In this document: one piece after another, positions 5,923 to 20,343 of the stretch
Position numbering within the stretch: the first letter of the stretch is position 1
How the letters are laid out: the number at the start of each line of letters is the position of its first letter
Assembly (NCBI RefSeq): GCF_057098645.1
Contig: NZ_CM169472.1
Length of the DNA: 64,000 nt
Reading direction: 5' to 3' (one strand)
Notes under the pieces: generated by a model
The model's input: the letters and a program-made list of their open reading frames with translations, nothing else
What the model was told of the DNA's origin: nothing
Database searches by the model: none
Position numbers and translations under genes: made by a program

Positions 5923-6007
5923 GCCGAAGTGGCGAAATCGGTAGACGCAGTTGATTCAAAATCAACCGTAGAAATACGTGCCGGTTCGAGTCCGGCCTTC
6001 GGCACCA
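5923..6007 (+). tRNA. leuX: tRNA-Leu (anticodon CAA), leuX
   Basis: 85-nt sequence GCCGAAGTGGCGAAATCGGTAGACGCAGTTGATTCAAAATCAACCGTAGAAATACGTGCCGGTTCGAGTCCGGCCTTCGGCACCA with long variable arm and encoded CCA end; the anticodon loop carries CAA. Confidence 0.95.
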
Positions 6008-6171
6008 TTATTACTTCCAAGTCCATCCGAGTAAGTCCGATTATCCATTAAAAATCAATACTTTCAGCGATTTCTACGATCTTGGATCGTCCGAGGTTGT
6101 CCGTTGAAATCCGGATGTCATTGGGGGCATAATTGGGGGCATCTTAACTTCGATTAGAAATGTGCCCCCAA

Positions 6172-7446
6172 ATGAAGCTCAATGCTAGACAAGTCGAGAC
6201 AGCAAAGCCAAAAGACAAAAGCTACAAAATGGCCGATGGCGGCGGTTTGTATCTCGAGGTTTCGGCCAAGGGGTCTAAATACTGGCGCATGAAATACCGA
6301 CGCCCCTCTGACAAAAAAGAGGATCGCCTCGCTTTTGGTGTTTGGCCGACCGTGACGCTTGCTGAAGCTAGAACGAGGAGGGATGAAGCGAAAAAGTTGC
6401 TGGCGCAAGGTATAGATCCAAAAGCAGTACAGAAAGAGGCTCAAGCAGAGAATGCTGGTGCTTATAATTTTGAAACTATTGCTCGTGAATGGCACGCCAG
6501 CAACAAACGTTGGAGTGAGGATCATCGGGCGCGTGTTCTTCGCTATCTAGAGCTGTATATCTTTCCTTATATTGGCTTGTCTGATATCCGACAGCTTAAA
6601 ACTAGCCATCTTTTAGCACCGATAAAAAAAGTTGATGCCAGTGGTAAGCATGATGTGGCGCAGCGTCTTCAGCAACGTGTTACTGCTATTATGCGCTATG
6701 CCGTACAGAACGATTATATAGATTCAAATCCTGCAAGTGATATGGCTGGTGCGTTATCGACAGCTAAAACGCGGCACTATCCAGCTCTACCATCACATCG
6801 TTTTCCTGAGTTCTTAGCACGTCTTGCTGCATATCGTGGTCGTATGATGACGAAAATTGCGGTTGAACTTTCTTTATTAACATTTGTTCGTTCCAGTGAG
6901 CTACGTTTCGCTCGCTGGGATGAATTCGACTTCGATAAATCTCTATGGCGTATACCTGCAAAACGCGAGGAAATTAAAGGCGTACGTTACTCATATAGAG
7001 GAATGAAGATGAAGGAAGAGCATCTCGTTCCACTTAGTAGGCAAGCGATAGGGTTGTTGGAGCAGTTAAAGCAGATTAGTGGTGATAAGACGCTGCTTTT
7101 CCCTGGGGATCATGACGCAACTAAGGTTATGAGTGAGAACACTGTTAATAATGCATTGCGTGCGATGGGCTATGATACGAAAACAGAAGTTTGCGGACAT
7201 GGTTTTAGGACAATGGCACGTGGTGCGTTAGGAGAGTCAGGATTATGGAGTGATGATGCTATTGAACGCCAATTGAGCCATTCGGAACGTAATAATGTGC
7301 GAGCTGCGTATATTCATACGTCTGAGCATTTAGATGAGCGCAGACTAATGGTCCAATGGTGGGCAGATTATCTTTATTCCAACAGAGAGAAGCATATCTC
7401 TGCTTTTGAATTTGCAAATAAACTTAATAAAAATAGCCTTGATTAA
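6172..7446 (+). CDS. P4-type tyrosine integrase
   Basis: MKLNARQVETAKPKDKSYKMADGGGLYLEVSAKGSKYWRMKYRR... N-terminus typical of P4-family integrases; C-terminal catalytic region with R..HGFR..Y residues; located directly 3' of the tRNA. Start could also be the upstream ATG at 6160. Confidence 0.85.
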   Translation: MKLNARQVETAKPKDKSYKMADGGGLYLEVSAKGSKYWRMKYRRPSDKKEDRLAFGVWPTVTLAEARTRRDEAKKLLAQGIDPKAVQKEAQAENAGAYNFETIAREWHASNKRWSEDHRARVLRYLELYIFPYIGLSDIRQLKTSHLLAPIKKVDASGKHDVAQRLQQRVTAIMRYAVQNDYIDSNPASDMAGALSTAKTRHYPALPSHRFPEFLARLAAYRGRMMTKIAVELSLLTFVRSSELRFARWDEFDFDKSLWRIPAKREEIKGVRYSYRGMKMKEEHLVPLSRQAIGLLEQLKQISGDKTLLFPGDHDATKVMSENTVNNALRAMGYDTKTEVCGHGFRTMARGALGESGLWSDDAIERQLSHSERNNVRAAYIHTSEHLDERRLMVQWWADYLYSNREKHISAFEFANKLNKNSLD

Positions 7447-7547
7447 GTCTCCGCTTAGTTTGAACTAGCCTTCATCAACAGCAATGCTTGTGTCTTTTTA
7501 ACCTTCACTTAACAACTTCTTAGGCAATTATTCCATTGCTTTTAAAA

Positions 7548-7564
7548 ACTAAGTATTCCTTAGT
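7548..7564. promoter_or_regulatory. Inverted repeat upstream of the HTH gene; candidate controller-protein operator
   Basis: actaag-tattc-cttagt palindrome about 50 bp upstream of the HTH ORF start. Confidence 0.3.
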
Positions 7565-7613
7565 AATTTCGAGTGTAAAAAGTGCAAACCTACCTCCAAA
7601 AAGAGGATTTTCG

Positions 7614-7817
7614 ATGCTTCCAATTAGGTTAAAAAAAGCCCGATTGAATGCTGGGTTAACTCAAGAACAGTTGGGAATACTTGTTGGCATTGATGAATGC
7701 TCTGCCAGTGCTCGCATGAATCAATATGAGAAAGGTAAACATATGCCCGATTTTTCACTTACTAAAAAAATCGCTGATTTATTAAATGTCCCTGTCTCAT
7801 ATTTTTACACACCCTAA
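7614..7817 (+). CDS. Small HTH (XRE-family) regulator; candidate controller (C) protein of the adjacent R-M system
   Basis: 67-aa ORF MLPIRLKKARLNAGLTQEQLGILVGIDECSASARMNQYEKGK... with a classic helix-turn-helix; GAGGA RBS; sits immediately upstream of the putative restriction endonuclease on the same strand. Confidence 0.6.
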   Translation: MLPIRLKKARLNAGLTQEQLGILVGIDECSASARMNQYEKGKHMPDFSLTKKIADLLNVPVSYFYTP

Positions 7818-19785: not shown

Positions 19786-19792
19786 CCCACCT

Positions 19793-19817
19793 GACCGGCA
19801 TCTGCCGGTCTTTTTTT
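19793..19817 (+). terminator. Intrinsic terminator downstream of alpha
   Basis: gaccggc-atct-gccggtc hairpin followed by TTTTTTT. Confidence 0.7.
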
Positions 19818-19830
19818 ATCCCGACATCCC

Positions 19831-20125
19831 CCGAAGGTGAACAATCCACTGTTCACCCTTCACCGTATATTCACCCGTTATCACACTGAAATTAAAAGAG
19901 AAAAACGAAAGGTGAACAGTGTGAACAATCAAATCAAAAAAAACTTTTTTCTCCCTGCGTGATTTTCAGTGCAGGGGACTAATCGCCGGTATGAGTCACA
20001 CCGGCAGAATACCGGAGGTGAAGAATCGAATGTTCACCCTTCACCCATTATTCACCACCTATCATACTGAAATAAAAGGAGAAAAAAGAAAGGTGAACAG
20101 TGTGAACAGTTCTTTCGAAAAAAAA
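19831..20125. repeat. crr-like region: two direct repeats of about 110 bp, each with TGTTCACC/GGTGAACA octamers
   Basis: Near-identical units at about 19831-19945 and 20015-20125 (..ggtgaa..aatgttcacccttcacc..tcatactgaaataaaaggagaaaaa..aaaggtgaacagtgtgaaca..). Confidence 0.6.
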
Positions 20126-20321
20126 TTTTTTATGTGGATAAAAGATGCACTGGTTTGGATCCGAGCTACGGATCCAAACTTACTGATTAAAAATGATTTA
20201 ACTTTCCGATTTATTGATGGGCTGAAAATAGATTGGTCAGAAAAACAGTGGGGGCACAAAAGGGGGCATATTTCATTGTTGTGTTTTATTATTTGTTTTT
20301 TATCATTAACTTATTTTGATG

Positions 20322-20343
20322 TTTGAGTCCGGCCTTCGCACCA
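20322..20343 (+). repeat. attR: partial duplicate of the leuX 3' end
   Basis: tttgagtccggccttcgcacca versus leuX ttcgagtccggccttcggcacca. Confidence 0.7.

Follow-up and report, generated by a model that had tools for sequence, protein, structure and literature searches.

An EcoO109I-bearing P4-family satellite prophage at leuX with a doubly disrupted epsilon gene and an enlarged genome

Introduction

Attachment sites, an integrase, a cos site and the packaging genes of phage P4 next to leuX raise the question of whether the prophage that carries them can still leave its host with the aid of a P2-like helper. An earlier note on this DNA, drawn from the letters without database searches, had held that it could. 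We compared the element with P4 and with its closest relatives, gene by gene and site by site; all coordinates refer to the window, i.e. the whole 64-kb stretch of DNA that was analysed. The kind of element is already described, namely a P4-family satellite at leuX bearing EcoO109I, and the present copy is damaged and oversized.

Borders and backbone of the element

The prophage spans 5985-20343 of the window, between att cores derived from leuX. The tRNA-Leu(CAA) gene itself lies on the plus strand at 5923-6007 (ARAGORN; Rfam tRNA), and its 3' end constitutes the attL core GAGTCCGGCCTTCGGCACCA (5988-6007, delimited by comparison of the core sequences). The attR core, GAGTCCGGCCTTCG-CACCA on the plus strand at 20325-20343, matches 19 of the 20 nt, and this 1-nt deletion of a G distinguishes it from attL. 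Three Int arm-type sites at 6121-6171 (6121-6132, 6133-6144 and, inverted, 6160-6171) are the same as the arm repeats of P4 attP, as are two plus-strand sites at 20248-20271, GTGGGGGCACAA and AAGGGGGCATAT; by comparison with the P4 annotation, five of six arm sites are intact. The P4-type tyrosine integrase gene int is intact on the plus strand at 6160-7446 and encodes 428 aa from the first ATG, its relatives being annotated from 6172 (424 aa). The protein is 91% identical to P4 Int over 429 aa, 100% identical to that of an O157 relative, and contains the Pfam domains Arm-DNA-bind_3, Phage_int_M and Phage_integrase.

Across all P4 backbone genes the element shows 95-98% identity to P4 (NC_001609 / X51522), and DNA identity is 96-98% across 10174-13715 and 16353-20343. 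On these alignments, leuX harbours in its 3' end a P4-family satellite prophage whose backbone is nearly identical to P4. The tRNA gene, the att cores and the backbone alignment thereby bear out the earlier reading of a P4-like satellite at leuX, with att repeats taken from the tRNA 3' end and a P4-type integrase. A Zorya II / Druantia III island adjoins the satellite.

Homology to P4 resumes at 10174, next to the 19-nt cos cohesive-end sequence GGCGAGGCGGGGAAAGCAC (minus strand, 10155-10173), which is identical to P4 nt 1-19 at 19 of 19 positions. Three intact packaging genes lie beyond it on the minus strand: psu (10338-10910; 99.5% identical to P4; Pfam Psu, 296 bits), delta (10984-11484; 97.6%; Pfam Ogr_Delta) and sid (11481-12215; 244 aa, 98.8% over 244/244 aa). 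On the plus strand are found vis, coding for an AlpA-family excisionase and regulator (12757-13023; 98.9%; Pfam Phage_AlpA), orf151 (16526-16981; 98.7%), cnr (orf106, DUF5375 by Pfam; 17117-17437; 100%) and alpha, coding for a 777-aa primase-helicase (17452-19785; 99.2%) with Zn_Ribbon_Prim, Toprim, D5_N and Pox_D5 domains, all of them intact. The 19-nt cos, sid-delta-psu, a Vis-like regulator and the alpha primase-helicase had each been named in the earlier note, correctly in every case.

The late-promoter dyad TGT-N12-ACA, also named there, is a more qualified matter. As a significant pattern by itself it was rejected on counts (21 matches against 14 +/- 3.5 expected), and the support for it comes from positional homology with P4, where the copies starting at 12250, 12288 and 12637 occupy the Psid and PLL positions. 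The two dyads of the Psid region (minus strand, 12250-12305), at 12250-12267 and 12288-12305, are identical to P4 9531-9548 and 9493-9510, respectively, and the PLL dyad TGTAAGGCTGCCGGAACA upstream of vis (plus strand, 12637-12654) is homologous to P4 9133-9150.

Replication sites were recognised by iteron count and comparison with P4. We counted 12 copies of the type-1 iteron TGTTCACC where 1.7 were expected; ten of them form two clusters, one at ori (12385-12478) and one at crr (19836-20099), the two locations given in the earlier note. The ori (12385-12478) holds five such iterons, a sixth, present in P4 and in the O157 relative, having been removed by a 10-bp deletion. The crr (plus strand, 19831-20131) had been described as a tandem 110-bp repeat; it actually consists of two 120-bp direct repeats with type-1 iterons (19831-19950 and 20012-20131), 83% identical to each other and spaced 181 bp from start to start, as in P4.

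Immunity module

A PLE-like promoter, TTGCCT-18-TATAGT (13059-13088), and its leader were located at 13059-13172 on the plus strand by promoter scan and by the Rfam models c4-a1b1 and isrK. Within the leader are a seqA core, CTCGAAG (13136-13142), and, at 13152-13166, a terminator hairpin. The CI immunity RNA (Rfam C4 family, 74.3 bits) follows at 13271-13358 on the same strand, with the seqB core CTTCGAG at 13316-13322, and the seqC core CTCGAAG lies at 13395-13401. The three boxes covary three ways, reading CTCGAAG in this element as against P4's TTCACAGG and the GTTATCGG of the O157 relative. The module, as predicted, is internally coherent, and its specificity is unlike that of P4 and unlike that of the closest relative. 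That all boxes have changed together among 98.5%-identical elements shows a fast turnover of satellite immunity specificity. The element would probably be held as an immune prophage by this CI-RNA module of its own. An Ash/Icd-like ORF remains open across the region (plus strand, 13020-13610; Pfam Phage_ASH) and is 92% identical to its O157 counterpart over 196/196 aa.

Int, Vis, the att arm sites, cos, psu, delta, sid, alpha, cnr, ori, crr and the CI-RNA module are thus intact in sequence. The intact replication and packaging toolkit that had been claimed stands for alpha, cnr, ori, crr, cos, sid, delta and psu taken singly; it does not stand for the element as a whole.

EcoO109I cargo

The interval between int and cos is a known P4 defence hotspot, with type II restriction-modification systems among its cargos (PMC9122126). 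Here an EcoO109I C-R-M system at 7536-10021 replaces gop/beta/cII of P4. A C-box, CTAAGTATTCCTTAG, lies upstream of the controller gene (plus strand, 7549-7563) and corresponds to the consensus CTAAG-N5-CTTAG (PMC6765115). C.EcoO109I, a homologue of C.Csp231I (PDB 3LFP), is encoded at 7614-7919 on the plus strand; GAA has become TAA at 7815-7817, codon 68 of 101, so the product has 67 aa, against the 101-aa form known as UniRef Q9RPJ4 'Eco0109IREP'. The 67-aa form was also found in other E. coli drafts (14 contigs, several samples), among its carriers EEU0429694.1, EHW7703851.1, EKT7787677.1 and HHK9097041.1, and all contigs retrieved for this allele stop just past cos, short of epsilon.

Both enzymes of the EcoO109I system are intact. 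The type II endonuclease R.EcoO109I (plus strand, 7912-8730), whose recognition sequence is RGGNCCY, is identical to PDB 1WTD at 272/272 residues (PADLOC REase_II), and the 417-aa C5-cytosine methyltransferase of M.EcoO109I type (minus strand, 8768-10021; Pfam DNA_methylase, 220 bits; PADLOC MTase_II) is 100% identical to the allele of the O157 relative. Expression of R.EcoO109I would probably be reduced following the nonsense codon in the controller. The truncated C protein, as predicted, still has its complete helix-turn-helix core and may be active.

Disruption of epsilon by an IS21-family element

Two lesions affect epsilon, which is found as two plus-strand fragments. The 5' fragment (13603-13713) retains the GTG start and is frameshifted, the A-run at 13612-13615 being 2 nt shorter than in relatives; the frame shifts at codon 5 and reaches a stop after 13 codons. 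The 3' fragment (16359-16533) was recognised by comparison with P4. Between them, at codon 38, lies an insertion sequence (IS) of the IS21 family, ISSso4-like, 2,639 bp long with TG...CA ends (plus strand, 13714-16352). Its borders were set by alignment to an uninterrupted relative and to two other copies of the IS. In P4 coordinates the insertion falls at 8061-8068, within eps (7888-8175), a gene annotated "helper derepression protein".

The IS is flanked by a 6-bp target duplication, GTTTGT (13708-13713 and 16353-16358). It carries istA (13946-15481; rve and Mu-transposase C-terminal domains) and istB (15498-16253; IstB_IS21 ATPase), according to Pfam, both intact, 99.8-100% identical to other E. 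coli copies and in the same orientation as the alpha operon. The istA transposase, the istB ATPase, the TG...CA ends and the short target duplication are those expected of the IS21 family, and repeated subterminal motifs are also present. When the IS and one copy of the duplication were removed in silico, a 95-codon frame was recovered, frameshift aside, with 91/95 positions identical to P4 epsilon. Epsilon can accordingly be read as a pseudogene twice over, by the 2-nt frameshift and by the IS. The alignment to the P4 genome that had been proposed as a check for truncated key genes therefore gives a mixed answer, epsilon being truncated and alpha, sid, delta, psu and int not. The earlier description of this interval leaves out the IS (13714-16352), the frameshift in epsilon and the EcoO109I cargo (7536-10021).

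The junction between the IS and epsilon (k-mer GTATCCCGGTTTGTTGCAAAATGGCATC) was absent from the 5,426 complete E. coli genomes searched, 67 of which hold an IS-free version of the same element (82% coverage and 98.6-98.8% identity among the matches listed). The IS is multicopy in this species, with up to 34 places per genome, and can as such mislead assemblers; the 2-nt change sits in a homopolymer and could be an assembly error. It is nonetheless scarcely credible that the IS or the small lesions are assembly artefacts hiding an intact element, considering that a clean 6-bp duplication of epsilon sequence flanks the IS, that duplications of the same length (TTTGAA and GTCAAT) flank the two other independent copies, and that the controller nonsense allele recurs independently in the 14 contigs from several samples. 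For the IS, misassembly was ruled out because a misjoin would not create a 6-bp target duplication.

Prospects for helper mobilisation

P4-like satellites have been defined by seven core markers (Moura de Sousa and Rocha, PMC8628076; SatelliteFinder, PMC10085698). Six are found here (integrase, Psu, Delta, Sid, the AlpA/Vis regulator and the Alpha primase-helicase), and the seventh, the helper derepression protein epsilon (Pfam PF25738), is represented by a pseudogene. Because the definition of the family tolerates one absent marker (Type B), membership is kept as an epsilon-defective variant. Marker-based tools that equate Ash with epsilon could score the intact Ash-family ORF (PF10554, 13020-13610) as epsilon. 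Among functional traits, a P2-type cos site and an ori and crr with predicted alpha-binding type-1 iterons are present, and the length of 14,337 bp exceeds the size of about 12 kb that goes with a Sid-determined T=4 capsid.

The att-to-att spacing, which is also the length of the excised circle, amounts to 14,337 bp versus 11,624 bp for P4, i.e. 23% more; it is the IS that has brought the excised genome to 14.3 kb. The capacity of the small capsid determined by Sid is about 12 kb (PMC9122126), and packaging works best for genomes of the size of P4 (PMC9942202). A monomer of the present element would hence be too large for a Sid-sized capsid.

Induction and replication would be affected as well. 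A resident P2 prophage would stay uninduced with epsilon, the anti-repressor that derepresses the P2 helper, dead. In P4, orf151-cnr-alpha is driven from the PLE and PLL promoters. The IS is located between these promoters and orf151-cnr-alpha, and expression of alpha would depend on read-through across 2.6 kb of IS. Such read-through is possible, since a simple scan found no plus-strand intrinsic terminator inside the IS and istA and istB are co-oriented with the operon. A promoter at the right end of the IS was also considered as a source of alpha expression and was rejected, a consensus scan of that end having found none. P4 Psu is itself a suppressor of Rho-dependent polarity (PMC3737525, PMC11718236).

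A fully functional satellite, mobilised by a P2-like helper as efficiently as P4, would agree with the cis sites and backbone ORFs, none of which, epsilon excepted, is shortened and whose identity to P4 is 91-100%, and with an IS devoid of predicted plus-strand intrinsic terminators. We regard it as highly improbable, given that epsilon is inactivated twice, that 2.6 kb of IS separate the promoters from alpha and that the genome outgrows P4 by nearly a quarter (23%) when the small capsid takes about 12 kb.

A leakier course has to be weighed more carefully. When the helper superinfects instead of residing as a prophage, epsilon is dispensable; Cox activates PLL, and delta alone can transactivate the P2 late genes. 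Transactivation by delta alone is supported by PMC12239096, with reference to Halling and Calendar 1990. The element could still be excised by means of Int, Vis and the att sites, and a superinfecting helper could still be acted upon by delta, sid, psu and cos; by analogy with the known packaging of P4 sid mutants, P2-size heads might take up genomes of excessive length in the form of 28.7-kb dimers. A superinfecting helper, activation of PLL by Cox and read-through into alpha would then together permit low-frequency transfer, as dimers or after precise loss of the IS. The intact state of Int, Vis, five of six arm sites, delta, sid, psu, cos, alpha, cnr, ori and crr, the co-orientation of istAB with no terminator predicted, and the existence in genomes of epsilon-less P4-like variants that may be functional (PMC8628076; PMC10085698) are consistent with this course. 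It seems unlikely all the same, since an intact Sid would direct the formation of small capsids, too small for 14.3 kb, the attL and attR cores do not match fully, 1 nt being deleted from the latter, and ori has one iteron fewer; precise excision of IS21-family elements is, moreover, rare.

The reading that we favour, and consider likely, is that of an EcoO109I-bearing P4 satellite in decay. Because epsilon is dead, the IS sits in the left operon and the genome has reached 14.3 kb, efficient helper-mediated transfer would be unlikely unless the IS is lost. The earlier proposal that a P2-like helper could still mobilise the satellite becomes doubtful on these three grounds; as the element now stands, mobilisation may happen, though probably inefficiently.

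Three independent lesions, the epsilon frameshift, the IS in epsilon and the nonsense codon in the restriction controller, may also be viewed as steps of host-driven domestication instead of random decay, leading to a fixed anti-P2/methylation island next to that of Zorya II / Druantia III; we think this improbable. If it were true, the satellite would have lost both the induction of a resident helper and its own exit, along with part of the strength of its restriction arm, and would have retained the methyltransferase, the heteroimmune CI-RNA module and the anti-helper functions of Psu, delta and Sid.

Beyond annotation the significance of this element is small. It illustrates that a checklist of markers (att, int, cos, sid-delta-psu, alpha) can be passed despite an IS, a 2-nt frameshift and an excessive size, and that claims of mobilisability need a whole-length alignment to an uninterrupted relative together with a size check.

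Comparison with known systems

The order int, cos, psu-delta-sid, ori, vis, CI RNA, eps, orf151, cnr, alpha, crr, att is that of P4, with which the element also shares integration at leuX and identical cos, Psid dyads and arm sites. It differs from P4 in having EcoO109I C-R-M instead of gop/beta/cII, an int with a DNA identity of no more than 83% and a protein identity of 91%, an eps that is frameshifted and split by the IS, five type-1 iterons at ori versus six, with type-2 repeats that are not conserved, the immunity specificity CTCGAAG versus TTCACAGG, and a size of 14.3 kb versus 11.6 kb.

In E. coli H709c, the strain of Kita et al. 1999 (J Bacteriol 181:6822), EcoO109I reportedly occupies the int-psu interval of a P4 prophage that is integrated at leuX, and one IS21 copy is said by the same authors to reside in sid of that prophage. 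Ours is not obviously the same insertion, because sid is intact here and the IS is in eps. The endonuclease matches R.EcoO109I at 272/272 residues, whereas the C protein of the H709c prophage has 101 aa (UniRef Q9RPJ4) and that of the present element is cut by a nonsense codon; an origin of the window from H709c was rejected on this ground. EcoO109I-P4 elements are also found in many O157:H7 genomes and, among the matches listed, the IS-free elements are 98.6-98.8% identical outside the IS; the present copy is set apart from these relatives by a frameshift and an IS in eps, by one ori iteron fewer and by another immunity specificity.

EcoO109I is listed among the P4-like hotspot cargos in PMC9122126 and in its preprint. 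As in the P4 defence hotspot (Rousset et al. 2022, PMC9122126), variable cargo lies beside cos, between int and psu, and at about 2.6 kb (7447-10154) it equals the mean hotspot size of about 2.6 kb (PMC9122126); nothing is new in kind, and the difference is that the controller gene is truncated here. From other E. coli copies of this ISSso4-like IS21 element, ours differs only in insertion site. Earlier work has documented P4-like satellites at leuX, the defence hotspot next to cos and EcoO109I as its cargo.

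Borders and P4 backbone

The single tRNA gene of the window, leuX (tRNA-Leu(CAA), 5923-6007), ends in the attL core GAGTCCGGCCTTCGGCACCA (its final 20 nt, 5988-6007), and a second copy lacking one G is found at 20325-20343, with a core-to-core spacing of 14,337 bp. This 19/20 attR core, compared with attL and P4 attP, has the same missing G in L002 (14717) and L005 (16634), leuX elements of two other lineages carrying other cargo or other downstream DNA. Since the lesion is common to these lineages it appears to be old, which suggests a long-standing right junction that was inherited vertically while cargo was exchanged internally. 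Excision would possibly leave leuX defective.

P4 (NC_001609 / X51522) was the sole extended match among phage records by megablast (62% coverage, 95% identity). Finer BLAST revealed two collinear blocks, 10174-13715 against P4 11624-8061 (96%) and 16353-20343 against P4 8068-4078 (98.4%), and an int region at 83%. A translated comparison with every P4 protein allowed us to identify full-length Int (91% identity), Psu (99.5%), Delta (97.6%), Sid (98.8%), Vis (98.9%), Orf151 (98.7%), Cnr (100%) and Alpha (99.2%); Epsilon is in two pieces, and P4 Gop, Beta and CII are unmatched in the window. The 19-nt cos (10155-10173) is exactly P4 nt 1-19, two Psid dyads of the form TGT-N12-ACA have the P4 sequence, one PLL dyad occupies the homologous position, and 5/6 of the P4 Int arm-type sites are kept exactly. 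The TGTTCACC iterons (12 in the window versus 1.7 expected) cluster at ori and crr.

An earlier note, made from the sequence alone, had proposed an intact satellite that a P2-like helper could still mobilise. Its att repeats from the leuX 3' end, P4-type integrase, cos, sid-delta-psu, late-promoter dyads, Vis-like regulator, alpha primase-helicase and iterons are all borne out by these comparisons. The crr, described there as a tandem 110-bp repeat, really consists of two 120-bp copies whose starts are 181 bp apart. Its proposed alignment to P4 in search of truncated genes left the proteins from Int to Alpha whole and epsilon split; both the condition of epsilon and the insertion sequence within it had been omitted.

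At ori (12460-12478), a 10-bp deletion took out one of three tandem TGTTCACC iterons. The counterpart of the P4 type-2 repeat segment (12570-12630) is entirely different in the window, P4 and the O157 relative. As read from the sequence, att, arm sites, cos, ori and crr are all present in cis, and the predicted trans factors are complete but for epsilon.

Interruption of epsilon

The nearest relatives on chromosomes are P4-like leuX elements from O157:H7 and other E. coli; among the matches listed they align over 82% of the interval with 98.6-98.8% identity. The remaining 18%, missing from these relatives, is a single block that belongs to the IS21 family (ISSso4-like in NCBI nomenclature) and is 99.8-100% identical to copies dispersed in E. 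coli chromosomes and plasmids. Alignment to an uninterrupted relative and two other IS copies placed its TG...CA ends at 13714-16352 (2,639 bp), with a 6-bp target duplication (GTTTGT); the two other copies have their own 6-bp duplications, TTTGAA and GTCAAT. Intact istA (13946-15481) and istB (15498-16253) run in the same direction as the P4 left operon. Several copies of the motif CGATC-N-(T/A)TTGGCAT (repeat family D2) at the IS ends (13710-13824, 16270-16345) presumably represent sites bound by IstA, of the kind usual at the ends of IS21-family elements.

The target, P4 8061-8068, is within eps (7888-8175, annotated "helper derepression protein"), and the insertion falls at codon 38/95. 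A separate lesion affects codons 4-5, where A4 is found versus A6 in P4 and two relatives, and the frame from the GTG start reaches a stop after 13 codons. Deletion in silico of the IS and one duplication copy gave a reading frame otherwise 91/95 identical, which argues that both lesions are recent. The IS-eps junction was absent from all complete E. coli genomes in the collection (n=5,426). The P4-like family definition allows one absent marker (PMC8628076, PMC10085698). True epsilon is PF25738; because an Ash-family ORF (PF10554) is intact, a tool equating "Ash" with epsilon might still count 7/7 markers.

Immunity module

Rfam identified the CI RNA (C4 family, 13271-13358) and, in the leader, a1/b1-type targets and isrK; a PLE-like promoter (13059-13088) and a leader terminator (13152-13166) are predicted. 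The short complementary boxes seqA (13131-13146), seqB (13315-13326) and seqC (13383-13405) display three-way covariation: in the window CTCGAAG is common to seqA, seqC and seqB read as its reverse complement, and its place is taken by TTCACAGG in P4 and by GTTATCGG in the O157 element (98.5% identical). Because the boxes changed in concert, the circuit is predicted to be self-consistent and heteroimmune, and near-identical satellites would thus be heteroimmune to each other.

EcoO109I cargo and neighbouring genes

Where P4 has gop/beta/cII, a low-GC stretch (7.5-10.1 kb) codes for a C-R-M type II system comprising a C-box CTAAGTATTCCTTAG (7549-7563; consensus from PMC6765115), a controller gene (7614-7919), the R.EcoO109I endonuclease (7912-8730; 272/272 identical to PDB 1WTD) and a C5-cytosine methyltransferase (8768-10021, minus strand). 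This cos-adjacent position is a defence hotspot of P4-like satellites, with EcoO109I among the listed cargos (PMC9122126 and preprint). A single-base change in codon 68/101 (GAA to TAA, 7815-7817) sets the controller apart from the O157 allele and deletes a stretch that aligns to C.Csp231I residues 68-86; the endonuclease and methyltransferase are intact despite this nonsense codon. The 101-aa form is UniRef Q9RPJ4, "Eco0109IREP", and the identical 67-aa allele in 14 further contigs from several E. coli samples indicates a real lineage allele. Judging by its title, a 2002 paper by Kita et al. (cited in PMC6765115) indicates that such C proteins activate expression of R, and the truncation therefore suggests an attenuated restriction arm.

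A defence island lies to the right of attR. Directly beside attR, a 682-aa ORF (21021-23069), a hypothetical protein found at the same position in other E. coli, had no match in Pfam or PADLOC. It is followed by an HNH restriction endonuclease of the phosphorothioate-sensing (phosphorothioate-DNA-binding) type at 23692-24720; Zorya type II (ZorE/B/A) occupies 25104-28634, and Druantia type III is represented by DruH (28789-32148) and DruE (32139-38462). Four genes at 38686-54909 form a helicase and type IIG-like cluster whose products are very large: 952 aa for an SNF2/DrmD-like protein, 1636 aa for a type IIG RM-like methyltransferase-nuclease, 2113 aa for a DruE-like helicase that has an HNH-like tail at its C-terminus, and 704 aa for a UvrD/GajB-like helicase. 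The first members of this cluster are pseudogenes in strain Z1323HEC0422.

Mobilisation of the satellite

In P4, alpha is not known to be transcribed other than at the distal end of the left operon, whose promoters are PLE and PLL, and its expression here would require transcription through the IS. This block may be leaky, since a simple scan predicted no intrinsic terminators on the left-operon strand within the IS and Psu counteracts Rho (PMC3737525, PMC11718236). With epsilon gone, the element would leave a P2 prophage repressed. A response to a helper that superinfects could remain, and delta is able to transactivate late genes (PMC12239096); low-frequency transfer, towards which these features point, is nonetheless unlikely in view of element size. 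Size would be the most robust obstacle, at 14,337 bp versus 11,624 bp for P4, with a small-capsid capacity of ~12 kb (PMC9122126) and packaging most efficient at P4 genome size (PMC9942202): the intact sid would direct assembly of small capsids, for which the monomer is too large. The 19/20 attR core and the lost ori iteron add minor uncertainties. Behaviour like P4, which the conserved backbone might suggest, is very improbable with epsilon broken and the genome enlarged, and the copy as it stands is probably not efficiently mobilisable.

Comparison with known systems

In the H709c prophage, Kita and colleagues reportedly found that sid carries a copy of IS21. In the present element, by contrast, the IS lies in eps and not in sid, which is intact, and the C allele is also different, so this copy is related to the H709c prophage but distinct. 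It is nothing new in kind: EcoO109I in a leuX-integrated P4 prophage was already described in 1999, and the hotspot concept dates from 2022.
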